This document shows positions 25,647 through 47,300 of a DNA stretch of 64,000 bases, piece after piece. The stretch is from an uncultured Gammaproteobacteria bacterium (GTDB lineage: Bacteria; Patescibacteriota; Patescibacteriia; Magasanikbacterales; GWA2-37-8). Under the pieces are notes generated by a model. It worked only from the letters and a program-made list of their open reading frames with translations, ran no database searches and was not told where the DNA came from. The translations under genes were made by a program, and so were the position numbers. The stretch lies in NCBI GenBank assembly GCA_964533715.1, contig CAZHNI010000001.1:5514-69513 (forward strand), in the 5' to 3' direction. Numbering within the stretch: position 1 is the first letter of the stretch; each line of letters begins with the position of its first letter.

Positions 25647-26510
25647 ATGTATACGTCCGTAACAATTAAACAGTTGCACCACGCACTCCAAGCGCTTGAC
25701 CCATCAGCGCTTGTTTTGTTAGGGGGCAGTTATTTATATGACGAAGCGGTAGAGGAAAGTGATGTTGATTTTTATTTTATAATACCTTCATGGAAGATAT
25801 TTTTTTTAAAGAAATTTAAAAAAATAATTCAGAATTTAAAACAGCGTTTTTCTGGCGTGAATTTTAGTGTTATGATTGTGCCACAATGGCTTCGACGGCA
25901 TGGATACTATATTTATGGAAAAGATGTCAGCGGTAAAATTCATACATGGGAACTCCCAATTTCAATATTAATAAGGAATTGTCTTAAGCTGGCCTATTTT
26001 AATTATTTACGGTCAATGGTGGAACCAAAAAATAAAGAGAGAAATGTTCAGAAAGTAAAAAAGCAACTTGCGGTAGCAGAACTTGCCGCGCAAGGTAAGG
26101 TAGATTTTAAAGAACCAATTTTTTCGTGGAAATATATCAAACGACATTTGGTCTCGTCTGTCATTTCGACCGTAGCGACCAAAGGGAGCGAAGTGGAGAA
26201 ATCGCTTGACTGCAGTGACTCACAGATCAAGGGATTCCTCGACTGCGGCTTCGCCTTCGCTCGGAATGACAACGCGAATGACGGTCTACGGCAAGTGCAT
26301 GGACAATTCCTCCCATATTTTAATTTTTCCTTGTCAAATTATTTGCTTTACAATATTCGTTTTTTGCTCAAAGGCAACCCCTTGTTTCTATTTAGTAATC
26401 CTGATAAAATGGTGTTAGAAAAAATGGTTATTGGAATTGAGCACGAAGAAAAACTCCCAGAATTGTATAAAGAAATAAAAAGAATTGTTTTTCCTGTTAT
26501 TATTTTTTAA
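25647..26510 (+). CDS. nucleotidyltransferase-domain protein with an in-frame palindromic-element insertion
   Basis: LLGGSYLYDEAVEESDVDFYFI matches the pol-beta superfamily GS...DxD signature. Codons ~172-209 are encoded by repeat copy 26159-26271. Confidence 0.4.
   Translation: MYTSVTIKQLHHALQALDPSALVLLGGSYLYDEAVEESDVDFYFIIPSWKIFFLKKFKKIIQNLKQRFSGVNFSVMIVPQWLRRHGYYIYGKDVSGKIHTWELPISILIRNCLKLAYFNYLRSMVEPKNKERNVQKVKKQLAVAELAAQGKVDFKEPIFSWKYIKRHLVSSVISTVATKGSEVEKSLDCSDSQIKGFLDCGFAFARNDNANDGLRQVHGQFLPYFNFSLSNYLLYNIRFLLKGNPLFLFSNPDKMVLEKMVIGIEHEEKLPELYKEIKRIVFPVIIF
26159..26271. repeat. palindromic MITE-like element copy (TIR TGTCATTTCGACCG...CGCTCGGAATGACA), in frame in the nucleotidyltransferase gene
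   Basis: Terminal inverted repeats and internal sub-palindromes are shared with the other copies. Confidence 0.7.
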
Positions 26511-31214: not shown

Positions 31215-32165
31215 ATGATGATAGATACACACGCCCATGCGCACTTTAACGCCTATAAGGATGATATGGACGAAGTAATAGAGCGGAGCCTTGCTAGGGG
31301 TGCTGTTATTAATTTAGTTGGGACCCAAGCAGATACGAGCAAGCGGGCGGTTGAAGTCGCCGAAAAATATGACGGAGTATACGCCACAATTGGTCTTCAT
31401 CCAGAACATCTTTTTTCCAAGTGGGTTGACGAAGAAGAAACCTCTTTTCAATCGCGGGAAGAAAGTTTTGATTATGAGTACTACAAAAGTTTGGCGGTAA
31501 TGCCCAAAGTTATTGGCATAGGGGAGTGTGGGTTAGATTTTTACCGTATTCCCGAAGGTATGACCAAAGAGGCTATGCTCCCTAAACAGGCAGAAGTTTT
31601 TAGGCAGCATATTAATTTATCTCAAGAAACAAACTTGCCGCTGATAATTCATTGTCGTGAGGCGCATGAGGAGATGATTGCCATCCTGAACACGTTCGTT
31701 TCGCTCAGTGTAAACTCCGCGGAGCGTGGTGAAGGACCCCCTCAAAAGCAAGGGGATTATTCGGTCGTCCCGAGCAATTCGGGACTCCCTCAGAATGACA
31801 ATGCAAACAAAAAATTACGTGGCACGATGCACTGCTACACCAGCAGCTGGATTAATGCCCAAAAATATTTAGAAATGGGTTTTTACATTGGTTTTACCGG
31901 CGTTATTACATTTCCTCCCCAAAAAGCGAACCCGCAAGCCCAGGCGGATTTATTGGAAGTTGTTCGTAAGATGCCAGAGGACAGGATACTTTTGGAAACC
32001 GATTGCCCTTATTTATCACCAATTCCATATAGAGGAAAGCGAGGCGAGCCTTGGATGATTGAGGCAACAGCAGCAAAAATAGCGGAACTCCGCGGAATAA
32101 GTTTGGAAGAAACCCTAAGCGTAACAACAAAAAATGCGCGGAACCTTTTTCAGAAAATGGTTTAG
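31215..32165 (+). CDS. tatD: TatD-family metal-dependent hydrolase with an in-frame palindromic-element insertion
   Basis: IDTHAHAH, GECGLDFY, IIHCREAHEE, HCYTSSW and ETDCPYL motifs. About 35 extra residues (VSLSVNSAERGEGPPQKQGDYSVVPSNSGLPQNDNA) between the third and fourth metal-binding motifs are encoded by repeat copy 31697-31798. Confidence 0.7.
   Translation: MMIDTHAHAHFNAYKDDMDEVIERSLARGAVINLVGTQADTSKRAVEVAEKYDGVYATIGLHPEHLFSKWVDEEETSFQSREESFDYEYYKSLAVMPKVIGIGECGLDFYRIPEGMTKEAMLPKQAEVFRQHINLSQETNLPLIIHCREAHEEMIAILNTFVSLSVNSAERGEGPPQKQGDYSVVPSNSGLPQNDNANKKLRGTMHCYTSSWINAQKYLEMGFYIGFTGVITFPPQKANPQAQADLLEVVRKMPEDRILLETDCPYLSPIPYRGKRGEPWMIEATAAKIAELRGISLEETLSVTTKNARNLFQKMV
31697..31798. 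repeat. degenerate palindromic element copy, in frame in tatD
   Basis: Right TIR CCCTCAGAATGACA, left arm degenerate (CGTTTCGCTCAGTG), inner palindrome GTCCCGAGcaatTCGGGAC. Confidence 0.55.
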
Positions 32166-32503: not shown

Positions 32504-33286
32504 ATGTCCCAATTGATTTTACCACCACTCGGCGCTGAAACCATGTTTCATATTGGTTCGATACCTGTTACCAACACCATCGTTAACACTTGGATAGCGA
32601 TGGTTATTTTTTTAATCTTTGGCTTGGCGCTTCGCAAACGCGTATCGCTCCGACCAGGAAAATTGCAAAATTATTGCGAATATTTTTTGGATATTTTACT
32701 CGGATATTTTGACCAAGTAACTGGTAGCCGAAAAAAGACAATCCAATTTCTTCCTGTTGTTGGTTCAATTTTTTTCTTTATTTTACTTTCTAACTGGCTT
32801 GGGCTTCTCCCTGGAACCGGCAGCATTCTTAAGGGCCACGAACCATTGCTGCGTCCGGCTAATACCGATTTGAATTTAACCATTGCTATGGCCGCAGTGG
32901 CGGTTATTTCATCGCATATTTTTGGTTTTTTATCGGTAGGATTTTTTACACATATTGGTAAATTTGTTCAAATCAAAAATTTTATAAAAAGTATCCCCAA
33001 AGGTCCGGTTGCAATTTTTCAAGCAATTGTGGAATTTGCAGTTGGGCTAATTGAAATTGTGAGTGAACTTGCCAAAGTAATGTCGCTTTCACTTCGTCTT
33101 TTTGGTAATATTTTTGCTGGTGAAGTTTTAATGACGGTGATGCTTAGTTTGGTAGCGGCGGTGGTTCCGGTTCCATTTATGCTTTTGGAGTTGTTGGTCG
33201 GCATTATTCAAGCTAGTGTGTTTGCCATACTTACGTTAGTATATATGTCTGTTGCCAGCGCTGAACCACACGGAGCGGAACACTAA
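32504..33286 (+). CDS. atpB: F0F1 ATP synthase subunit a
   Basis: Five-six TM helices with the conserved Arg in LSLSLRLFGNIFAGEV. Confidence 0.85.
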   Translation: MSQLILPPLGAETMFHIGSIPVTNTIVNTWIAMVIFLIFGLALRKRVSLRPGKLQNYCEYFLDILLGYFDQVTGSRKKTIQFLPVVGSIFFFILLSNWLGLLPGTGSILKGHEPLLRPANTDLNLTIAMAAVAVISSHIFGFLSVGFFTHIGKFVQIKNFIKSIPKGPVAIFQAIVEFAVGLIEIVSELAKVMSLSLRLFGNIFAGEVLMTVMLSLVAAVVPVPFMLLELLVGIIQASVFAILTLVYMSVASAEPHGAEH

Positions 33287-33323
33287 AACATAAAAACACA
33301 AGAACATTAAAACACAATAAGCC

Positions 33324-33356
33324 GTTTTAATGTTTTAATGTTTTAATGTTTTAATG
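33324..33356. repeat. tandem octamer (TTTTAATG)x4 preceded by an 11-bp perfect hairpin in the atpB-atpE spacer
   Basis: AACATTAAAAC...GTTTTAATGTT stem, then GTTTTAATG repeated four times. Confidence 0.7.
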
Positions 33357-33650
33357 ATATCTACCCTGAATCGTATAAGCCGTACATTCGGCGATTCAAC
33401 GGAGATGGATATCAAGAAAGTTAATTCTATGGATCACGAATCACTCGTGACGATTATGAAGGGTGCCACGATGGCGCTCGGCGGCGTTGTTCCCGCCATA
33501 TCAATTGGTCGTATCGTAACCAAGGCTATGGAGTCTATTGGCCGTAATCCGGAATCAGCCGGTAAATTGTTCGTTCCCATGCTTCTTGGTGCTGCTTTTG
33601 CCGAAGCTATCGCTATTTACGCTCTTGTAGTTGTATTTACTCTCAAATAG
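33354..33650 (+). CDS. atpE: F0F1 ATP synthase subunit c (probable true start near 33429, MDHESL..., giving ~73 aa)
   Basis: Two-helix hairpin with GRNPE loop and conserved carboxylate in AAFAEAIAIYALVV. Confidence 0.8.
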   Translation: MISTLNRISRTFGDSTEMDIKKVNSMDHESLVTIMKGATMALGGVVPAISIGRIVTKAMESIGRNPESAGKLFVPMLLGAAFAEAIAIYALVVVFTLK

Positions 33651-33701: not shown

Positions 33702-33824
33702 TGTCATTCTGAGCCTGCCTCCTGCATGCGCAGGTATGGCGCAGACAGGTGAAATGAAGAATCTTCCTATTATGAAGATCCTTCCCCAAAGGGGTCCCTT
33801 TGGGACGCTCTGCTCAGGATGACA
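33702..33824. repeat. palindromic element copy, intergenic atpE-atpF
   Basis: TIR TGTCATTCTGAGC...GCTCAGGATGACA. Carries the CCTGCCTCCTGCATGCGCAGG and GAAGAATCTTCCTATTATGAAGATCCTTC modules. Confidence 0.75.
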
Positions 33825-33835
33825 AAATAGAATCT

Positions 33836-34381
33836 ATGCAATTTATTGACACTGTTTACGCTGCCGAAATCGCCGAGTCAGCGCAGGAAGGCCTCTTAAC
33901 CTCCCTTGGTATCAATGGGACGTTATTTATTTTTCAACTCGTCAACTTTGCTATCGTGGCAACAATTATTTGGTTTTTAATTTTAAAACCACTTACAAAA
34001 AAAATGACTGAGCGTCAAAAGATGATTGACGACAGTATCGATAATTCAAAAAAAATTCAAGAAACACTTCAGCACAGTGAACAAAAATATCAGGAACGCA
34101 TTGACCAGGCGAAAGTGGAATATAATAAAATTTTGGAAAAAGCCACTGTTGATGCGGTAGCGACAACAGATGCCATGAAAGTAAAGGCTAAGCAAGAGAT
34201 TGAAATGTTGGTAGATCAGGCAAAAAGAAATATTAAAATTGAAAAAGAAGAAATGGTATCAGCTTTAAAAAATGAAACCGCTGGATTTATTGTAATGGCA
34301 TTAGAAAAAATTCTGGGAGAAAAAGTTGATAGTAAAAAAGATAAAGAAATGATTGAGGAAATGATTAAAAAGTTAAAATAA
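33836..34381 (+). CDS. atpF: F0F1 ATP synthase subunit b
   Basis: N-terminal TM helix (LFIFQLVNFAIVATIIWFLIL) followed by a long charged helix. Start set at ATG 33836, because tracked ORF 33800.. begins inside an intergenic palindromic element. Confidence 0.75.
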   Translation: MQFIDTVYAAEIAESAQEGLLTSLGINGTLFIFQLVNFAIVATIIWFLILKPLTKKMTERQKMIDDSIDNSKKIQETLQHSEQKYQERIDQAKVEYNKILEKATVDAVATTDAMKVKAKQEIEMLVDQAKRNIKIEKEEMVSALKNETAGFIVMALEKILGEKVDSKKDKEMIEEMIKKLK

Positions 34382-34382
34382 T

Positions 34383-34775
34383 ATGCCAAAAAAGGCACAG
34401 GATATTAAAAAAATAGCAGCCGCTCTATACGAGGTTACTAAAGATTTAAGCGGTCAGGAGCTCGGCAAAGCCTTGCAAGGTTTTGTGTCTCTTTTGGTAA
34501 GAAAAAATTTGTTTGGTCAGGCTGAAAAAATAATTTCGGCATTTGTAGCCTATGCAAAAAAACAAGAATGTATTCTAGAGATTGATGTAACGACTGCTCG
34601 AGAAATTGAAACGAAATTGTTGCAGGCAATCCAGAACGCTTTTGGTAAAAATGTAGAGTCTACAACAAACGTGGATGATTCCCTTGTCGGTGGTTTTGTA
34701 GTTAAAACAAAGGATACTGTTTTTGATGCCAGCTTAAAAACACAACTACAAAAATTAAAACAAAGCTTGATTTAA
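34383..34775 (+). CDS. atpH: F0F1 ATP synthase subunit delta (short form)
   Basis: Position between atpF and atpA and an OSCP-like C-terminal part (LVGGFVVKTKDTVFDASLKTQL). Confidence 0.65.
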   Translation: MPKKAQDIKKIAAALYEVTKDLSGQELGKALQGFVSLLVRKNLFGQAEKIISAFVAYAKKQECILEIDVTTAREIETKLLQAIQNAFGKNVESTTNVDDSLVGGFVVKTKDTVFDASLKTQLQKLKQSLI

Positions 34776-34776
34776 T

Positions 34777-34884
34777 TGTCATTGCGAGGAGCAAAGCGAC
34801 GAAGCAATCCCCCTGAGTTCAGTGCTCCTGAAAACAAGGGGATCGCCACGTCAGCCGGTGCGAACCGGCTTCCTCGCGATGATA
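34777..34884. repeat. palindromic element copy, intergenic atpH-atpA
   Basis: TIR TGTCATTGCGAGG...CCTCGCGATGATA; shares the GCAATCCCCCTGA core with the rlmN copy. Confidence 0.7.
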
Positions 34885-34904
34885 GCTTTAATCTAATAAA
34901 ACCT

Positions 34905-36392
34905 ATGTCCATCAACTCAATTGTCGAAGAACTCAGAAAGAATATTAGTAAATTTGAAAAGCAGGTCGAAGTGGAAGAAATTGGAACCGTTACCGAGGTA
35001 GGGGATGGTATTGCTCGTGTGAACGGCCTTACCAATTGCCAGGCGAGCGAAATGTTGGAATTCCCGGATAACACTATCGGCGTGGCCTTAAACTTGGATG
35101 AAGATTCCGTTGGCGCGGTTGTACTTGGTGAGTTTAAACATATTAAAGAAGGAGATACCGTAAAACGTACCGGCCGTATTTTATCGGTACCGGTTGGGGA
35201 GGAGCTTATTGGCCGCGTTGTTAACCCGCTTGGTGTTCCTATTGATGGTGGGGCTAACCTTAATAGCAAAAAATTCTATCCAATTGAAAAAATTGCTCCT
35301 GGTGTTATGACTCGTGAGGGCGTCAGCCAGCCAGTGCAAACTGGTATTAAAGCCATCGATGCCATGATCCCAATTGGTCGCGGTCAACGCGAGCTTATTA
35401 TTGGTGATCGTCAAACCGGCAAAACCGCTGTGGCAATTGATACAATTATTAACCAAAAAGGTCAGAACATGATTTGTGTGTACGTGGCAGTTGGGCAAAA
35501 GGAGGCAAAAATCGCCCGTATTATGGCAAAACTTAAAGAGGCTGGTGCCATGGATTATACTATTATTGTTTCGGCCGCCGCTTCTGACCCAGCCGCTCTG
35601 CAATATATTGCCCCGTATGCTGGTGTGGCTATGGCCGAATATTTTATGGACCAAGGTAAAGATGTGCTTTGTGTTTATGATGATCTTTCTAAACAAGCCG
35701 TTGCCTACCGTGAAATTTCACTCTTGCTGCGTCGCCCACCGGGTCGTGAAGCTTATCCTGGTGATGTTTTCTATTTGCACTCACGCCTCTTGGAACGTGC
35801 TTGTAGACGTAATAAAGAAGCTGGTGGCGGGTCAATTACCGCTCTTCCAATTATAGAAACTCAGGCCGGTGACGTTACCGCCTACATTCCAACCAACGTT
35901 ATTTCCATTACTGATGGTCAAATTTTCTTAGAATCAGATTTGTTTTATCGTGGTATTCGCCCGGCGGTAAACGTTGGTATCTCTGTGTCGCGTGTTGGCT
36001 CTTCCGCTCAAATTAAACCAATGAAAAAAGTAGCCGGTAAACTTAAGTTAAGTCTAGCCCAGTTTCGTGAACTTGAAGCTTTTTCTCAGTTTTCAAGCGA
36101 TCTTGACCCGGAAACAAAAAAACAAATTGATCTTGGTGTGCGCATGGTAGAAATTCTTAAACAACCACAGTATCAACCAATGGGTGTGGCTCATCAGGTT
36201 GCTATTATTTACGCGGTATCAAACGGATACGCCAATGAAATTGAGGTGCAAAATATGAAAGAATGGGAAGATAAATTTCACATTTTCTTTGAAAAAACTC
36301 GCCAGTCACTCTTAGAAAAAATTAGCAAAGGAGAGTGGGATGAGAAAATTGAAGGTGAGTTAAAAGAAGCGATTGCCGAATACAAAAAATAA
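34905..36392 (+). CDS. atpA: F0F1 ATP synthase subunit alpha
   Basis: Walker A GDRQTGKT and alpha-subunit signature regions. Start set at ATG 34905 ([10 protein letters not shown]...). The 43 upstream codons of tracked ORF 34776.. are an intergenic palindromic element read in frame. Confidence 0.9.
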
Positions 36393-36714
36393 ATATTTTA
36401 TGAAAAAGCTCCTCAGTCTAGAGGATATCAAATTAAGAATAGATCAAATTATCGATGAGCTTAGCTCCGGGGCAATTTCGATTAGAGAAATTGAACCTAT
36501 CCATGAAAAATTGCAGCAAGCTAGGGCGGATTATTTAAGGATTGTTGAAGAAATAAAAGCAGATGATCCAGAAATTTTAAATCATAATGCTACATTGGTT
36601 AGGGTGTACATTGAGATTGGCAGGCTCTATGACGCGGCTCTTTCGTTGATAAGAAAAATTGAACGAGAGGGAATAGGTGAATTTCGGTCTGAAGGTAGGG
36701 GATCTAAAAATTAG
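36373..36714 (+). CDS. hypothetical coiled-coil protein inserted between atpA and atpG
   Basis: ORF with coding-like composition overlapping the atpA end; no recognisable family. Confidence 0.3.
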
Positions 36715-36716
36715 AT

Positions 36717-37739
36717 ATGGCAGTAAGTACCAAAACAATTAAACGCCGCATCAAATCAATTTCCAACACCAAAAAAATTACTAAGGCCATGGAGATGATT
36801 AGTGCGGTAAAAATGCGCCGAGCGGTAGCCAATGTTTTGGCTACCCGAAATTATGCTAGCCTGGCTTGGGAAATGCTTAAAGAAATTTCCGAGTACACGC
36901 ACGATGGCCACCATGCACTCTTGCAAAAAAGGCCTGTTAAAAAAATCGGTCTCATTTTAATTACCAGTAACCGAGGGTTGGCTGGCGGTTTTAGCAGCCG
37001 GTTATTGCAGGAAGTAGACAGCTACATAAAAAAAATCACTCATCAAACTGTCATTCCGACGACACGTGCGCTCCGCTCAGTGCAGGCTCCAGAGGAATCT
37101 CTGGCTCATTCGAATGACGGACAGAGATCCCTCGTCGGCGCGAGCCTCACTCGGGATGACAAAGTGCAAATTGGCATTGAAGCCGACATCATTCTTACTG
37201 GTAAGCGCGGCAAAAAAATTTATCATCGTTTTGGGCACACTGTGGTGGCCGAATTTGATAAAGTAGATCTTACCACCAGAATTGAAGAAATTTTACCCAT
37301 GGCCCAGTTGGCGGTAAAAGAATTTGTTGCCGGAACATACGACCAAATTGTAGTGGCGTACATGCATTTTAAATCCGCAATTGAACAAGTGGCCACAGTA
37401 AAACAAATTTTGCCGCTTACGAAAGATTCAATTAAAGAACTGGCCGCCAAAGAAGCTGATGACACTGAAGAAATAGAAGAGAGCACATTTTTGTTTGAGC
37501 CAAACCCGGCGCTGGTGCTTGATGTACTCTTGCCACGTTTGGTTGAAATGCAAATGTATCAGGCAATTTTGGAATCGGACGCCTCCGAGCACAGCGCTCG
37601 CATGATGGCTATGCGAAACGCCAGTGATTCGGCCAGCGATATGATTAAAGAGTTGCAAAACAGCTTTAACAAAGCACGCCAAGCAGCTATTACCCAAGAA
37701 ATTAGTGAAATTGTGGGTGGTGCAGCGGCCCTGGAGTAA
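36717..37739 (+). CDS. atpG: F0F1 ATP synthase subunit gamma with an in-frame palindromic-element insertion
   Basis: Conserved N-terminus (TKTIKRRIKSISNTKKITKAMEMISAVKMRRA) and C-terminus (MMAMRNASDSA...ITQEISEIVGGAAALE). About 38 extra residues (TVIPTTRALRSV...TRDDK) are encoded by repeat copy 37049-37161. Confidence 0.85.
   Translation: MAVSTKTIKRRIKSISNTKKITKAMEMISAVKMRRAVANVLATRNYASLAWEMLKEISEYTHDGHHALLQKRPVKKIGLILITSNRGLAGGFSSRLLQEVDSYIKKITHQTVIPTTRALRSVQAPEESLAHSNDGQRSLVGASLTRDDKVQIGIEADIILTGKRGKKIYHRFGHTVVAEFDKVDLTTRIEEILPMAQLAVKEFVAGTYDQIVVAYMHFKSAIEQVATVKQILPLTKDSIKELAAKEADDTEEIEESTFLFEPNPALVLDVLLPRLVEMQMYQAILESDASEHSARMMAMRNASDSASDMIKELQNSFNKARQAAITQEISEIVGGAAALE
37049..37161. repeat. 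palindromic element copy, in frame in atpG
   Basis: TIR TGTCATTCCGACG...CTCGGGATGACA; inner GAGGAATCTCTGG...GGACAGAGATCC module. Confidence 0.75.
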
Positions 37740-37772: not shown

Positions 37773-38159
37773 ATGGAGGAAAGATATCGTGATTTTACAG
37801 AGCTTGAAGTTTGGCAAAAAGCGCATGAACTAAGATTAAAAGTACGGATTCTTTGCAAATTTCTACCATCTGAAGAAAAATATGGCCTGATCTCACAAAT
37901 TTTAAGATCGTCCGCTTCAGTCGGTGCTAATATAGCTGAAGGTCATGGTAGATTTCACTATCAAGAAAATATCCAATATTGCAGACAAGCAAGAGGATCG
38001 CTAGATGAAACTCGTGATCATCTAATCTATATACGTGACGCTGATTTAATAAGAAAAGTGAGTAGTTTGGAATATTTAGTTAATCTATGTTTACAAATAA
38101 AGGCTTTGTTAAATGGTTATATCGGTTATTTAAAAAAATGTAAACAAGGGCAAGACTAA
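37773..38159 (+). CDS. four-helix-bundle protein (23S rRNA intervening-sequence protein family)
   Basis: Characteristic LEVWQKAHEL...SASVGANIAEGHGR...DETRDHL pattern of the four-helix-bundle/IVS protein family; AT-richer than its neighbours. Confidence 0.6.
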   Translation: MEERYRDFTELEVWQKAHELRLKVRILCKFLPSEEKYGLISQILRSSASVGANIAEGHGRFHYQENIQYCRQARGSLDETRDHLIYIRDADLIRKVSSLEYLVNLCLQIKALLNGYIGYLKKCKQGQD

Positions 38160-38193: not shown

Positions 38194-39573
<1,380 letters not shown>

Positions 39574-39638
39574 CAACATACAAGATACATGGAATAAAAT
39601 ATAATTTGTATATTTTTCCATGTATATTGAATATTTTT

Positions 39639-40049
39639 ATGATGTTTAAAATTGTTACACCCGAACGTCAAGTCTTCACCGATGAAGTTTCCCAAGTTAC
39701 TATGATGACCACCATGGGTGAAATTAGTATTTTACCGCATCACATTCCGCTCGTGGCTAATTTGGTTCCCGGAGAAATTAGATACAAAAAAAATAACGAG
39801 GAATTATCCATTGCTGTTTCGGGAGGTTTTGCCGAAGTCCGACCAGATGGGTCGGTTGTTATTCTCGCAGATACTGCCGAGCACGCACATGAAATTGACT
39901 TGGCTCGTGCCGAAGAAGCCAAATTACGCGCGGAAAAACTTATGTCCGAAGCGCGCAATAAAGATGAAGTGGATTATACGGCCCTCGCAGTAAAACTAGA
40001 AAAAGAATTAGCAAGACTCCGAGTAGGAAAAAAGTATCGCAAAGTCTAA
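39639..40049 (+). CDS. atpC: F0F1 ATP synthase subunit epsilon
   Basis: Beta-sandwich N-terminus (KIVTPERQVF...) and a C-terminal helical hairpin. Start set at ATG 39639. Confidence 0.75.
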   Translation: MMFKIVTPERQVFTDEVSQVTMMTTMGEISILPHHIPLVANLVPGEIRYKKNNEELSIAVSGGFAEVRPDGSVVILADTAEHAHEIDLARAEEAKLRAEKLMSEARNKDEVDYTALAVKLEKELARLRVGKKYRKV

Positions 40050-40138: not shown

Positions 40139-40162
40139 CCCCTGATTCCAGGGGCATTTTTT
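40139..40162 (+). terminator. rho-independent terminator of the atp operon
   Basis: CCCCTG-attc-CAGGGG hairpin followed by CATTTTTTG. Confidence 0.6.
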
Positions 40163-42122: not shown

Positions 42123-42187
42123 TGTCATTCTGAGTGAAACGAAGAATCCTCCTATTATGAAGATCCTTCGCTCCGCTCAGGATGACA
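42123..42187. repeat. short palindromic element copy immediately upstream of, and overlapping, the rlmN start region
   Basis: TGTCATTCTGAGTG...CGCTCAGGATGACA with the GAAGAATCCTCCTATTATGAAGATCCTTC module. Confidence 0.75.
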
Positions 42188-42199
42188 GACGATTATCAC

Positions 42200-43411
42200 A
42201 TGACTAAAATTGTCAAAACAATAGAATCCATTCTAGCTAATGAACCCGCCTTCCGCATTAAGCAAATTGAAAAGGCGTGGTTTGATGTGTCCTTAAATTC
42301 GTACGATGAAATTACTACCTTGCCAAAAGAGCTTCGCGAAAAATTAAAAGATATTCCCTGGTTAAGTTTGGAAGTCCACACCGAATTAAAAAGCAAAATG
42401 GATAACACGCGCAAATACCTTTTTAAACTAGGGGATGGGAATTTGATTGAGATGGTCTTGATGGGTCGTATGTCATTGCGAGCCCCGAAGGGGCGCGGCA
42501 ATCCCCCTGATTTGATCGAGGACGTTGACGAGGAGATTGCTTCGTCAGTCGCTGCGACGCTCCTTTCTCGCAATGACACATCGGCGATTGGCCGCGACAC
42601 CAGTGGCGATCGTTACACCATCTGTATTTCATCTCAAGCCGGGTGCCCCATGCGGTGTGCGTTTTGCGCCACGAGCAAAAGCGGTTTTAAGCGTAATCTT
42701 ACCGCCGAAGAAATTATAGATCAATATCGTTTCGCCCAGCGACTACTGGCCAAAGAAAATAATCGGGTGAATAATATTGTGCTCATGGGCCAAGGGGAAC
42801 CGCTGGTAAACTATGAGAACGTAAAAAAAGCGATCAATACTATTTTAAAAAACAGCGACATCGGCTCTACCAAAATAACTCTATCCACTGTTGGTTATGT
42901 GCCCGCCATGGAAAAAATGATAACCGACACCGACTTTCCGCCGGTGCGTTTTGCCTTGTCACTTCACAGCGCTATAGAAGAATCGCGTAAAAAAATTATT
43001 CCAACGCACAAACCAGGGTTTTTGGAATGGCTCGTGAAGTGGGGGAATGCCTACCACGAAAAATTTGGCAACCGCACCCATTTTATTGGTTTTGAGTACA
43101 TTATGTTAAGTGGGGTAAATGATGATGAAGCACATTTGAAGGCACTGATAAAATTGTGCAAACGTTTTCCTATCGTTCGCGTTAACCTCATTCCGTACAA
43201 CACCACCAACGATGCCGGTGAGGTTGATGAAATTAATAAATTGGAAGAACAAATGGGCTCTAATTATCGCATTTTTACCCGCACCCCGCACGAGCTTATT
43301 GAACATTGGCACGAGAGTCTTATGGATGCGGGAATTACGTCCACTATCCGTTATTCGCAGGGGCAGGATATTGCGGCGGCGTGTGGGCAACTCCGGAATA
43401 AAGAAAAATAG
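42200..43411 (+). CDS. rlmN: radical SAM rRNA/tRNA adenosine-C2 methyltransferase RlmN with an in-frame palindromic-element insertion
   Basis: Radical SAM CxxxCxxC (CPMRCAFC), GQGEPL, and a C-terminal catalytic Cys region. About 36 extra residues (MSLRAPKGRGNPPDLIEDVDEEIASSVAATLLSRND) upstream of the cluster are encoded by repeat copy 42471-42578. Start set at ATG 42200, because tracked start 42182 lies inside a repeat. Confidence 0.75.
   Translation: MTKIVKTIESILANEPAFRIKQIEKAWFDVSLNSYDEITTLPKELREKLKDIPWLSLEVHTELKSKMDNTRKYLFKLGDGNLIEMVLMGRMSLRAPKGRGNPPDLIEDVDEEIASSVAATLLSRNDTSAIGRDTSGDRYTICISSQAGCPMRCAFCATSKSGFKRNLTAEEIIDQYRFAQRLLAKENNRVNNIVLMGQGEPLVNYENVKKAINTILKNSDIGSTKITLSTVGYVPAMEKMITDTDFPPVRFALSLHSAIEESRKKIIPTHKPGFLEWLVKWGNAYHEKFGNRTHFIGFEYIMLSGVNDDEAHLKALIKLCKRFPIVRVNLIPYNTTNDAGEVDEINKLEEQMGSNYRIFTRTPHELIEHWHESLMDAGITSTIRYSQGQDIAAACGQLRNKEK
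42471..42578. repeat. palindromic element copy, in frame in rlmN (108 bp, 36 codons)
   Basis: TIR TGTCATTGCGAGC...CTCGCAATGACA. Confidence 0.75.
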
Positions 43412-44376: not shown

Positions 44377-47300
44377 ATGGGAAAATACTCTTTAAACAAG
44401 GCGCAACGTGAAGCCGTGGAGTATACCAGCGGCCCGCTTTTGATTGTGGCTGGGGCGGGGACGGGAAAGACGACGGTGATTACAAGTAAAATTTGTCGGT
44501 TGATTGAGGAAAAACTCGCCAAACCCGAGGAAATTTTGGCATTAACGTTTACCGAAAAAGCGGCGGCGGAAATGCAGGATAGGGTAGATGAGATAACCAA
44601 TATTGGCTACGCCGATCTCCACATTTCTACCTTCCACGCCTTTTGTCAAAAAATTCTGGAGCGGCATGCCATTGATATCGGCCTCTCCAATTCGTTTAAA
44701 CTCCTCACCGACACGGCGGGCTGGGTTTTGCTCCACAAAAATTTGGATAAATTTAATTTGGATTACTACCGACCGCTCGGCAACCCTACTAAACACATTC
44801 ACGAATTTTTAAAACATTTTTCTAAGTGCAAAGATGAATTAATTACACCGCAGGAATATTTGGAGTATGCGGAAGGTTTAAAATTGAACAATGGACGAGA
44901 CCCCACCCTGCCCTCCCCTTTGCGAAGGAGAGGGGACAAAACCCCCTCCTCTGCAGAGGAGGGGGTAGGGGGAGATCTCGCGGAGGTCGAGCGGCTTACG
45001 GAAATTGCCAACGCGTATCACACGTATAATCAACTGCTTTTGGACAACGCGCTATTTGATTTTGGCGATTTGCTTTTTTATACCGTCAAATTATTTCGCG
45101 AACGGCCGAATGTGCTCAAAATGTTCCAGAATAAATATAAATATATTTTGGTGGATGAATTTCAGGATGTGAACTATTCGCAGTATGAATTAATTAAACT
45201 CCTGGCGGACGCCTCATTGTCATTTCGACCGGAGCCCCAAAGGGGCGAAGTGGAGAAATCCCTGTCTCAATCACGAACGGACAGAGATTCCCTGCCTGCA
45301 CCATGCCTGCGCATGCAGGAGGCAGGCTCGTCGGCCTCCGGCCTCGCTCGGAATGACAATATTGTTGGTCCCAACCTCACCGTGGTAGGGGATGATGACC
45401 AAAGTATTTATGCCTTTCGCGGCGCCAGTGTGGCGAATATTCTAAGGTTTAAAGATGATTATCCAACAGCCAAAGAAGTGGTGCTATCGGAAAATTTTCG
45501 TTCCGGCCAAAAGATTTTGGATGTGGCGTATGAGTCTATTCAGAACAATAACCCGGATCGGTTGGAAGTGAAGTTAAAGATAGACAAGCGACTAAAGGCC
45601 AAAAGGCCATCTGTCATTTCGACGACGAAGGAGAAATCTCTGGCTCACCAAACGATGAATAGAGATTCCCTGCCTGCACCATGCCTGCGCATGCAGGAGG
45701 CAGGCTCGTCGGCCTCCGGCCTCGCTCGGAATGACAATGGGGATGGCGTGGTGATACATTTGCACAAACCAACCGTCGAAGACGAGGTAGCGGCTGTTTT
45801 GGACGAAATTACGCGTATTAAAACGGTTACCGAAGGCGTAACCTGGGATGATTTTGCTATTTTGGTTCGTGCCAACAATCACGCGGATGCGTTTATAAAC
45901 CAACTGCAAACACGAGGCATTCCATACGAATTTTTGGCTTCTAGCGGATTGTATCGTCAACCGATTATTTTGGATTGCATAAACTTTTTTAAACTCCTGA
46001 ATAATTATCACGAATCCAGCGCAATTTATCGACTGCTCTGTTTACCTTTTTTTGAATTTAGAGAAAATGATTTACAAAAAATTACCTTTAATGCCAAGCG
46101 CAAAAGTATTTCGTATTACGAAGCACTCAAACGCGCTCCCGAATTTGATGTGTCGCAAGCAGGGATTAGCGTGTGTGCTAAATTGGTGGAAGTAATTCAT
46201 GCCGGCCTCCAGAGTATGCGTTACGAAAAGCCATCGGTGGTGCTGTATTCATTTTTGGAAAATAGTGGTTACCTCAAATACTTAACACACCAGGAAAACG
46301 AAGGTAAGGGCGATGTGATTCGCCAAATTCATTATTTAAAACAGTTTTTTGATTACATTGCGCAGTATGAATCGGTAACGCCTGAGGCGCATGTGGTCGG
46401 GTTTATAGAGCATTTTATGATGGTAGTGGACGCGGGTGATAAGGGAAGCCTCTACCAGCCGAGCGACACACCGGATTCCGTAAATATTTTGACGGTGCAC
46501 GCCTCCAAGGGCTTGGAATTTCGCTATGTGTTTGTAGTGAATTTGGTAGAAGATCGGTTTCCATCACGCAGTCGCAGTGACGCGCTGGAAATTCCGCTTG
46601 AACTCGTGAAAGAGCAATTGCCGGAAGGCGATAGCCATATTCAAGAAGAACGACGATTGTTTTATGTGGCCATGACGCGCGCCAAGGAACGTTTGTATTT
46701 TACCAGCGCGAGCGATTATGGTGGTACGCGCACAAAAAAGATTAGCCGATTTTTGGCGGAGTTAGATTTTGGTTCTGTCATTCTGAACGGAGCAAAGCGC
46801 AGTGAAGAATCCCTGTCTGCGCAGGCAGGTCTGTCTCAATCACCAACCGACGGACAGGGATCCTTCGCTTCGCTCAGGATGACAAAAAAAGTAAATGAAA
46901 TGAGTGAGCGAGTGTACGAAACGCCAAAAACTTTTTCATTCTCACAATTGCGATCGTACGAAACCTGTCCATATCAATACAAACTGGCGCATATTTTGCA
47001 TATCCCCATGAAGGGCAGTGCGAGTTTTAGTTTTGGTTCCAGCATGCACAACACACTCCAAGCGTTTTATGAACGGGTAATTGAGCTTAACAGTTCCAAA
47101 CAAGTCTCACTTTTTGACACACCCAAACCATCTGTCATCCCGAGCGTAGTCGAGGGATCCCTTTCGCCAACGTCAAGGGATTCCTCCACTCCGCTACGCT
47201 CCGGTCGGAATGACAAAGCGGTGAAAGTACCAGAATTTGAGGAGCTCTTAAAAATGTACGACGCTAAGTGGATTTCGGATTGGTTTAAGGATAAACGCCA

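Follow-up and report, generated by a model that had tools for sequence, protein, structure and literature searches.

An in-frame palindromic repeat element in the foot-domain loop of an ATP synthase gamma subunit gene from Magasanikbacteria

The atpG gene and its insert

The DNA analyzed here, a stretch of 64,000 nucleotides from contig CAZHNI010000001.1 (the window), is AT-rich and carries a complete atp operon on its + strand. Within atpG, the gene for the gamma subunit of the F-type ATP synthase, lies a 113-nt palindromic repeat that resembles a MITE (a miniature transposable element with inverted repeats), belongs to a family dispersed over the window, and leaves the open reading frame (ORF) of atpG intact. 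The element and the remaining features of the locus are listed in Table 1. A reading of the letters and their ORFs (the sequence-only reading) had placed a repeat-derived copy at 37049-37161, and the element boundaries, which we set by the terminal motif of the family, fall on exactly these positions.

The atpG protein belongs to the F-type gamma subunits: two stretches of it match the profile of Pfam PF00231 (E=3e-82) and cover it to position 285 of 285, and the protein has the coiled-coil helices and the Rossmann-like foot domain of these proteins. Solved gamma chains of the Protein Data Bank (PDB) also align in two stretches, with E-values down to 2e-55; residues 5-105 and 105-285 of 2qe7_G, which are contiguous, pair with residues 6-106 and 148-339 of the query, and therefore about 40 query residues have no counterpart. 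A Foldseek search with the predicted structure returned gamma chains at a probability of 1.00, with TM-scores of up to 0.81 (normalized by target length). The top protein matches carry the names Candidatus Magasanikbacteria or Patescibacteria, and all gamma residues that are invariant over 34 aligned relatives are kept. Both Pfam and the solved gammas align on either side of the insert and skip it. The sequence-only reading correctly described the subunit as otherwise well conserved, and its comparison of 340 residues with about 290 also holds, as uninserted relatives have 293-304 residues and solved bacterial gammas 282-290. Translation likewise agrees with its claim that the insert is in frame and free of stop codons; the length stated there is 38 residues, but the count is 39 codons, and the peptide quoted there also has 39 residues.

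The inverted ends of the atpG element are TGTCATTCCGA...TCGGGATGACA. Its GC content is about 0.60-0.61, against about 0.38-0.47 in the flanks, and its RNA fold has a free energy of -47 kcal/mol (z=-2.6), which none of 200 shuffles attains. Modules similar to its central hairpin occur in the window copies at 45218, 45612, and 46776, and also in L071, L002, and L004 (L numbers denote DNA loci of relatives and P numbers homologue proteins; L071/P0002, L082/P0004, and L003/P0007 are corresponding pairs). At gathering thresholds, Rfam found three tRNAs in the whole window and nothing else; with no match to the element, it is therefore neither a known structured RNA family nor a self-splicing intron. 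The terminator scan of the atp operon did not find the element terminator-like. By sequence, the tryptic peptides derived from the insert would include SVQAPEESLAHSNDGQR and SLVGASLTR. That the element might be 'designed' for openness in every frame was considered and rejected: of its six frames two are open, where 1.7 would be expected, and only 1 of 14 copies is open in frame +1; at the right end, two of the three frames are usable because the frame with the TGA of AATGACA is closed.

The position of the insert was obtained from an AlphaFold2 model built on the 34-sequence alignment (mean predicted local distance difference test score, pLDDT, 75.8; predicted TM-score 0.70), with secondary structure assigned by DSSP. 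The model has the gamma fold, and in it the insert extends the loop that connects helix alpha1 to strand beta2. This loop belongs to the Rossmann-like foot domain itself; the insert is not, as the sequence-only reading had it, between this domain and the N-terminal coiled-coil helix. Residues 115-148 have a pLDDT below 50, and the insert peptide is probably disordered. The Bacillus PS3 segment ...QTIQKRHAS(109)PDEYAIIVIG... aligns to ...YIKKITHQ[insert]VQIGIEADIILTG of the window, a correspondence based on residue 114 of 6n2y_G, which is aligned with query residue 157. Ser109 in the true sequence of TF1 is the published Ser107, an offset of +2 (PMC2576389), and the mapping of I210 to I212 corroborates this offset; in E. 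coli gamma (numbering of 3oaa_G) the alignment picks up again at K108, so that T106 falls within the gap. By these alignments, the loop that holds the insert is that of the classical probe sites, TF1 gamma-S107 and E. coli gamma-T106. TF1 gamma-S107C has been linked by biotin-streptavidin to actin filaments or beads (PMC2576389, PMC9447477), position 106 has carried the dye for fluorescence resonance energy transfer in working E. coli FoF1 (PMC6384691), and the probe loop protrudes from a rotor whose rotation goes on with actin filament, bead, or dye (PMC2576389, PMC9447477, PMC6384691). Although the loop is the same, the S107C and T106C probes are point mutations with chemical adducts, mostly in isolated F1, whereas atpG encodes a 39-residue loop in the native F1Fo. 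Helix alpha1 starts at the RGLCGG turn, where E. coli gamma-C87 cross-links to beta-D380C of the DELSEED loop; alpha1 would then run away from F1, and the insert would lie at that end of the foot which is remote from the contact with the beta lever.

Gamma has another hypervariable loop, which connects its last strand to the C-terminal helix (window 37416-37493, residues 234-259). This second loop measures 15-83 residues in relatives, often with repeat-derived peptides (PLSVSPL..., SPSQRRGQGEV...), has an ordinary 26 residues in the window, and corresponds roughly to the phototroph insertion region and to the mycobacterial 205-227 loop.

Table 1. Features of atpG, of the repeat family, and of the atp operon in the window.
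Feature	Coordinates	Strand	Basis or remark
atpG, F-type ATP synthase gamma subunit including insert	36717..37739	+	340 aa; ORF list, Pfam PF00231, PDB gamma chains, Foldseek
Palindromic MITE-like element, 113 nt, TGTCA...TGACA	37049..37161	+	sequence, composition, hairpin fold, family copies with same termini
Left terminal inverted repeat TGTCATTCCGAC	37049..37060	+	pairs with 37150-37161 in minimum-free-energy and centroid folds; terminus shared by other copies
Right terminal inverted repeat CTCGGGATGACA, read ..T-R-D-D	37150..37161	+	fold; same terminus in other copies
Central hairpin module GAGGAATCTCTGG...CAGAGATCCCTC	37092..37133	+	centroid fold
39 extra in-frame codons, T111-K149, TVIPTTRALRSVQAPEESLAHSNDGQRSLVGASLTRDDK	37047..37163	+	translation; gap in Pfam/PDB gamma alignments; pLDDT
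Helix alpha1 of gamma foot domain, residues 92-110	36990..37046	+	directly 5' of insert; DSSP on AlphaFold2 model; aligns to helix before TF1 S107 / E. coli T106
Strand beta2 of gamma foot domain, residues 155-161	37179..37199	+	3' of insert; DSSP on AlphaFold2 model
Family copy in unknown 287-aa ORF (25647-26510)	26159-26271		read in frame
Family copy, partial, in TatD-like hydrolase gene	31700-31803		read in frame
Family copy in atpE-atpF spacer	33702-33824
Family copy in atpH-atpA spacer	34777-34884
Family copy in RlmN-like radical-SAM enzyme gene	42471-42578		read in frame
Four family copies in UvrD-like helicase gene	45218-45358; 45612-45736; 46776-46884; 47133-47215		read in frame
atpB	32504-33286	+
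atpE	33354-33650	+
atpF	about 33800-34381	+
atpH	34383-34775	+
atpA	within 34776-36392	+
Small ORF between atpA and atpG	36373-36714	+	without Pfam match
PF05635 gene	37773-38159	+	between atpG and atpD
atpD	38206-39573	+
atpC	39606-40049	+

The repeat family and the turnover of its copies

Family termini, defined as TGTCAT[TC]NNGA and its complement, number 23 in the window, whereas shuffles contain 3.3; paired, they delimit 10 or more elements, 65-141 nt in length, whose internal hairpin modules form a mosaic. The ends are 11-12 nt long and of the TGTCATTCYGA type. About two-thirds of the window copies fall within ORFs that read through them. In 11 of the 14 copies examined, the frame that atpG uses, with the pattern V-I-P..R-[ND]-D (R-D-D in atpG), is open, and the intergenic copy at 33702 has stops in all forward frames. 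Together with the ordinary openness of the atpG element, this closed copy indicates that openness is a property of the surviving intragenic copies and not of the whole family. The sequence-only reading had argued for selection on reading-frame integrity, which is true but close to trivial, because only frame-preserving insertions survive in a gene that is needed, and the element is not unusually open.

The family is mobile, or has been: at 5103-5322 of L001, one element lies within the central loop of another, which shows genuine insertion activity. This nested pair lies in the atpD-atpC spacer of a Magasanikbacteria genome from Lake Baikal, and its outer element is the closest relative that we found for the atpG copy of the window. 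The terminal pattern also occurs in 42 contigs of the IMG/VR viral collection, some of them with tandem arrays, and the family is therefore broader than this genome. One of these contigs (L099 8545-8970) holds an array of five units of about 77 nt with A-rich spacers between them; another, GC-rich (L094 3163-4230), has repeat-like peptides ..SLRMTGEGRSRSAQDDRRG.. inside a 355-aa ORF.

To compare the loop among relatives, we counted in 119 homologues the residues that separate the conserved 'YI' from the conserved 'L-x-G'. The loop has 9-17 residues, mostly 13-14, in 98 of them, and 20 carry inserts of +17 to +41 residues that belong to different subfamilies and even to unrelated repeat types. 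On the DNA level, complete elements with both ends are present at the atpG loop of seven relatives (L071, L002, L004, L001, L009, L082, and L083), an unrelated CCCCTCC-hairpin repeat occupies it in L003, and it is empty (42 nt) in L084, L007, L008, L005, and L015. Family termini are found at a density of 0.59/kb in the loci with an atpG insert and of 0.07/kb in those without. Had relatives free of the repeat family contained a homologous segment at this position, the insertion proposed by the sequence-only reading would have fallen; they have the loop of 13-14 residues and no such segment. That different repeats fill the same loop in many relatives had been overlooked there. The nearest relative of the window's atpG is L071/P0002, and the protein database contained no near-identical strain with an empty site, the next relative being about 70% identical.

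The site shows turnover. For five of the six atpG-site copies queried (those of the window, L071, L004, L001, and L009 among the loci compared), the closest relative lies outside atpG: for the window copy it is L001:5105-5164 of the atpD-atpC spacer (88% over 60 nt), for the L071 copy L071:1628 (94% over 51 nt, in its left 51 nt only), for the L001 copy L003:1966 (92.5% over 80 nt), and for the L004 copy a helicase copy of the window. The copies of the window and of L071/P0002 were considered as simple orthologues, a possibility that we rejected as they have an arm module in common only in reverse orientation and differ in their other modules. Distances from the junctions to the flanking anchors vary (18/30, 3/30, 24/24, and 27/24 nt), and in P0101 the right end of the element is read in a different frame, as L-G-M-T. 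P0004, P0006, and P0007, with cores that are 95-96% identical, contain three unrelated inserts; in the DNA of L082/P0004 and L003/P0007, divergence begins directly after 'FIK'. Three pairs share their inserts by descent. The identity of insert and core is 83% and 97% in P0008/P0020, and 74% and 93% in P0003/P0004, so that in these two pairs the insert peptide seems less constrained than the core; in P0055/P0071 the insert at this site is 97% identical and the core 90%, that is, the insert is not the faster of the two. On 60 bootstrap neighbor-joining trees, parsimony required 11-15 changes for the presence of any insert in every tree and 6-9 changes for the type with the terminal inverted repeats (TIR).

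Two further observations concern repeats in the helicase gene. The copies at 45252-45360 and 45630-45738 have a common stretch of 109 nt that is 90% identical. A second, unrelated GC-rich palindromic repeat lies at window 44900-44975, with CCCTCCCC/GGGGAGGG hairpins (-62 kcal/mol); it is read in frame in the helicase as ..TLPSPLRRRGDKTPSSAEEGVGGD.., and repeats of this type also occupy the loop of atpG in L003/P0007 and other relatives.

Explanations for the insert and comparison with known systems

The explanation that we prefer, with a probability of about 0.8, is that a tolerated selfish element, similar to MITEs and to the Rickettsia palindromic elements (RPEs), sits in a protruding rotor loop and is translated as a flexible appendage, its frame being kept by purifying selection on atpG. 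A non-autonomous palindromic element of the MITE type would have entered the alpha1-beta2 loop region of atpG or displaced an earlier element there. Because its length keeps the frame and the frame used, V-I-P...R-D-D, has no stop, it would most likely be transcribed and translated together with atpG, giving a rotor appendage of about 39 residues that is probably disordered; because the loop protrudes from the rotor, the enzyme would tolerate the insert, which may be nearly neutral. In the Magasanikbacteria that bear these repeats, the alpha1-beta2 loop and the second loop before the C-terminal helix would have been repeatedly colonized, swapped, or emptied, while the gamma core would stay under strong purifying selection. 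The alpha1-beta2 loop is best read as a permissive site of fast turnover and not as the place of a unique event.

It is important to consider that several points weigh against this explanation. A low pLDDT is a hint of disorder only, and the trees used for parsimony are single-gene neighbor-joining trees. Translation of the insert and continued function of the enzyme are what we infer from the sequence. No target-site duplication was found and no partner transposase turned up, although none was specifically searched for, and the MITE mechanism is thus unproven. Finally, random insertion followed by filtering hardly explains the three unrelated inserts in the trio with 95-96% identity, and therefore targeting or template-directed gene conversion between copies must contribute.

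Gene conversion also figures in the alternative of one ancient insertion in an ancestor of the clade, inherited vertically and diversified by conversion with genomic copies, by indels, and by several precise losses, which we regard as possible but doubtful. It accounts for differing inserts in nearly identical proteins without an extreme hot spot, and it is consistent with the same left-end phase (ACT GTC ATT) in all six of the TIR-type atpG copies first examined, with the confinement of all atpG copies to a span of a few codons, and with the mosaic nature of the elements, of which the partial match between the L071 atpG copy and L071:1628 is an example; a resident element could also serve as a landing pad, as the nested L001 copy suggests. 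However, many independent precise losses would be needed, as the 6-9 changes for the TIR type alone indicate, and the alternative has to contend with unrelated repeats without family ends at the same site (L003/P0007, P0013, P0025, and P0037), with the differing junctions, and with the position of P0101 far off in the tree. The recurrence of inserts at the same loop across many lineages, and their persistence across speciation in the three pairs named above, could also mean that exaptation has turned the insert into a working part of the rotor. Such a flexible foot loop would have a regulatory role, for instance by braking ATP hydrolysis or through contact with the peripheral stalk or epsilon, and it would be kept or repeatedly re-acquired for this benefit. 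Precedents exist in the mycobacterial gamma loops 166-179 and 205-227, which have a part in auto-inhibition and come close to the peripheral stalk (PMC8617483), the former being likewise a helix-to-strand loop of the same domain as far as alignment ranges and model topology indicate, and in a functional gamma insertion described for phototrophs (PMC8390522). We nevertheless consider this unlikely, since no peptide is conserved across lineages (subfamilies, module orders, and repeat types differ), the insert is predicted by AlphaFold2 to be disordered and evolves faster than the core, many equally close relatives do without it, and copies of the same elements are found between genes as well as in frame within unrelated proteins. 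Less likely still is that the alpha1-beta2 loop is a targeted or positively selected 'cassette' site, where palindromic elements would be captured or exchanged again and again because a variable, flexible appendage at the rotor foot tunes the motor; by analogy with mycobacterial gamma 166-179, such an appendage might be a unidirectional brake or a contact with the peripheral stalk. If this were true, mobile elements would bring about adaptive hypervariation in a component of a rotary motor; the tuning could be of importance to bacteria whose ATP synthase may work for the most part as an ATP-driven proton pump.

The insert could also be absent from the mature protein, through translational bypassing, as in T4 gene 60 and the yeast-mitochondrial byp elements, or through removal from the mRNA. 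The element is a strong hairpin flanked by CAA codons (Q110 before it and Q151 after it), and a hop between them would restore the canonical 14-residue loop with the junction peptide ...ITHQ-IGIEADIILTGK (ITHQIGIEADIILTGK). This is very improbable, as every ORF-internal copy examined is in frame and stop-free (at least eight in the window and seven at the atpG site in relatives), which argues against bypass because bypassed or excised inserts would not need an open frame. Moreover, the copy between genes has not stayed open, the putative take-off codon is not followed by a stop, 113 nt are too few for a group I or II intron, and no Rfam family matched. Like the atpG element, the byp inserts of Magnusiomyces mitochondria and that of T4 gene 60 are GC-rich hairpins in genes of AT-rich genomes, but they break the frame or hold stops and are skipped by ribosomes, whereas here every intragenic copy keeps an open frame. 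An assembly artefact, or a decaying atpG pseudogene, is scarcely credible at all. Repeats are notorious for causing misassembly in metagenome-assembled genomes, but an independent assembly, that of Logan for run SRR11567528, agrees at 100% identity over 2212 nt spanning the insert, which makes an assembler-specific artefact unlikely even if this assembly and the source assembly may share the same reads, and the seven relatives with complete elements at the same site come from other samples. As to decay, the ORF is intact, the operon is complete, and the invariant gamma residues are present.

The preferred explanation, a tolerated selfish element, has its closest parallel in Rickettsia. RPEs are in-frame palindromic repeats in housekeeping genes (Ogata et al. 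2000, 2002, summarised in PMC10969869), and a 2024 review considered such a spread of in-frame palindromic elements merely 'conceivable' (PMC10969869). The family described here resembles them as a set of short palindromic repeats of about 100-150 bp dispersed in a small genome, with many copies in frame in unrelated housekeeping genes (atpG and at least four other genes in our case) and with a preferred frame that gives a family-typical peptide; in both cases the copies presumably occupy places that the protein fold can accommodate. The differences are the host phylum, here Patescibacteria/Magasanikbacteria, the TGTCATTCYGA ends, the GC-rich elements with a mosaic modular interior in an AT-rich genome, the presence of the family pattern in IMG/VR viral contigs, and the occurrence of different subfamilies in one protein loop of close relatives. 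Because the host phylum differs, we describe the element as one that works like an RPE and do not class it as one. We know of no report of different subfamilies in the same loop of one protein for RPEs.

Bacterial MITEs with intragenic in-frame copies include ERIC, the enterobacterial small mobile sequences, and the Coxiella QMITEs (PMC5896051; review PMC3184786). The atpG element is likewise short and without a transposase ORF (113 nt, other copies 65-141 nt), it has terminal inverted repeats (TGTCATTCCGAC pairs with CTCGGGATGACA, with the same ends in all copies), and its family combines many dispersed copies (at least 10 in 64 kb) and in-frame fusions to host ORFs, which are occasional in MITEs, with signs of mobility in the filled and empty atpG sites and the nested L001 copy. 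It differs in its share of copies within ORFs, which is much higher, and in the target-site duplication, as the flanks of 20 copies contain no consistent direct repeat; they do show a weak extension of the palindrome, with (A/T)(C/T) before TGTCA and (A/G) after TGACA. No partner insertion sequence with the same ends was noticed in the window, where no search was aimed at one. As the target-site duplication was not found, the element works like an RPE or a MITE and is not a proven member of either group. Literature searches for MITEs of the Candidate Phyla Radiation (CPR) or Patescibacteria and for the terminal sequence gave nothing relevant, the matches being apparent chance strings in oligonucleotide or construct sequences.

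Gamma subunits with additional residues in surface loops of the foot domain are also known from mycobacteria (166-179 and 205-227; PMC8617483) and from phototrophs, with a beta-hairpin/redox insertion (PMC8390522). Those insertions are conserved in their lineages, structured, shown to be regulatory, and located at other loops, whereas the atpG insert derives from a repeat, lacks conservation, and occurs patchily, and its peptide is predicted to be disordered.

If our explanation holds, the family would be a second large-scale case, beyond Rickettsia and Coxiella, of selfish palindromic DNA inside essential protein-coding genes, in this instance in the streamlined genomes of the CPR. For the ATP synthase it would amount to a natural experiment, in which the very loop that biophysicists chose for their probes has time and again been loaded with 17-41 additional residues in evolution. 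Such inserts also inflate and diversify the predicted proteins of metagenome-assembled CPR genomes and give rise to spurious N-terminal extensions and small ORFs, and they deserve recognition in annotation, alignment, and structure prediction. The three unrelated inserts at 95-96% identity pose a testable question, namely whether they arise by site targeting or by gene-conversion exchange.

Neighboring genes and spacers

The scan for terminators and promoters of the atp operon gave a sole convincing terminator, near 40139, after atpC. Three copies of the repeat family affect the predicted starts of genes. The copy in the atpE-atpF spacer provides the listed TTG start of atpF, the copy in the atpH-atpA spacer spuriously lengthens the atpA ORF by about 43 residues at its N-terminus (...LPRDDS), and the right end of a copy at 42123-42187 provides the ATG of the RlmN-like ORF (ATGACA, read M-T).

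The gene between atpG and atpD matches PF05635, '23S rRNA intervening sequence protein' (E=1.7e-30), and its position is kept in several relatives (L082 4095-4466, L081 1558-1944, and the P0006 contig); in L083, an unannotated 118-aa ORF stands in its place. The small ORF between atpA and atpG is also conserved in position (L084 3698-3988, L083 3642-3944, and L082 2165-3022, besides the window). It has 96-117 aa, but 285 aa in L082, and no Pfam match. In the atpB-atpE spacer, just 5' of atpE, the window has an AT-rich inverted repeat with a GTTTTAAT tandem run (33281-33356).

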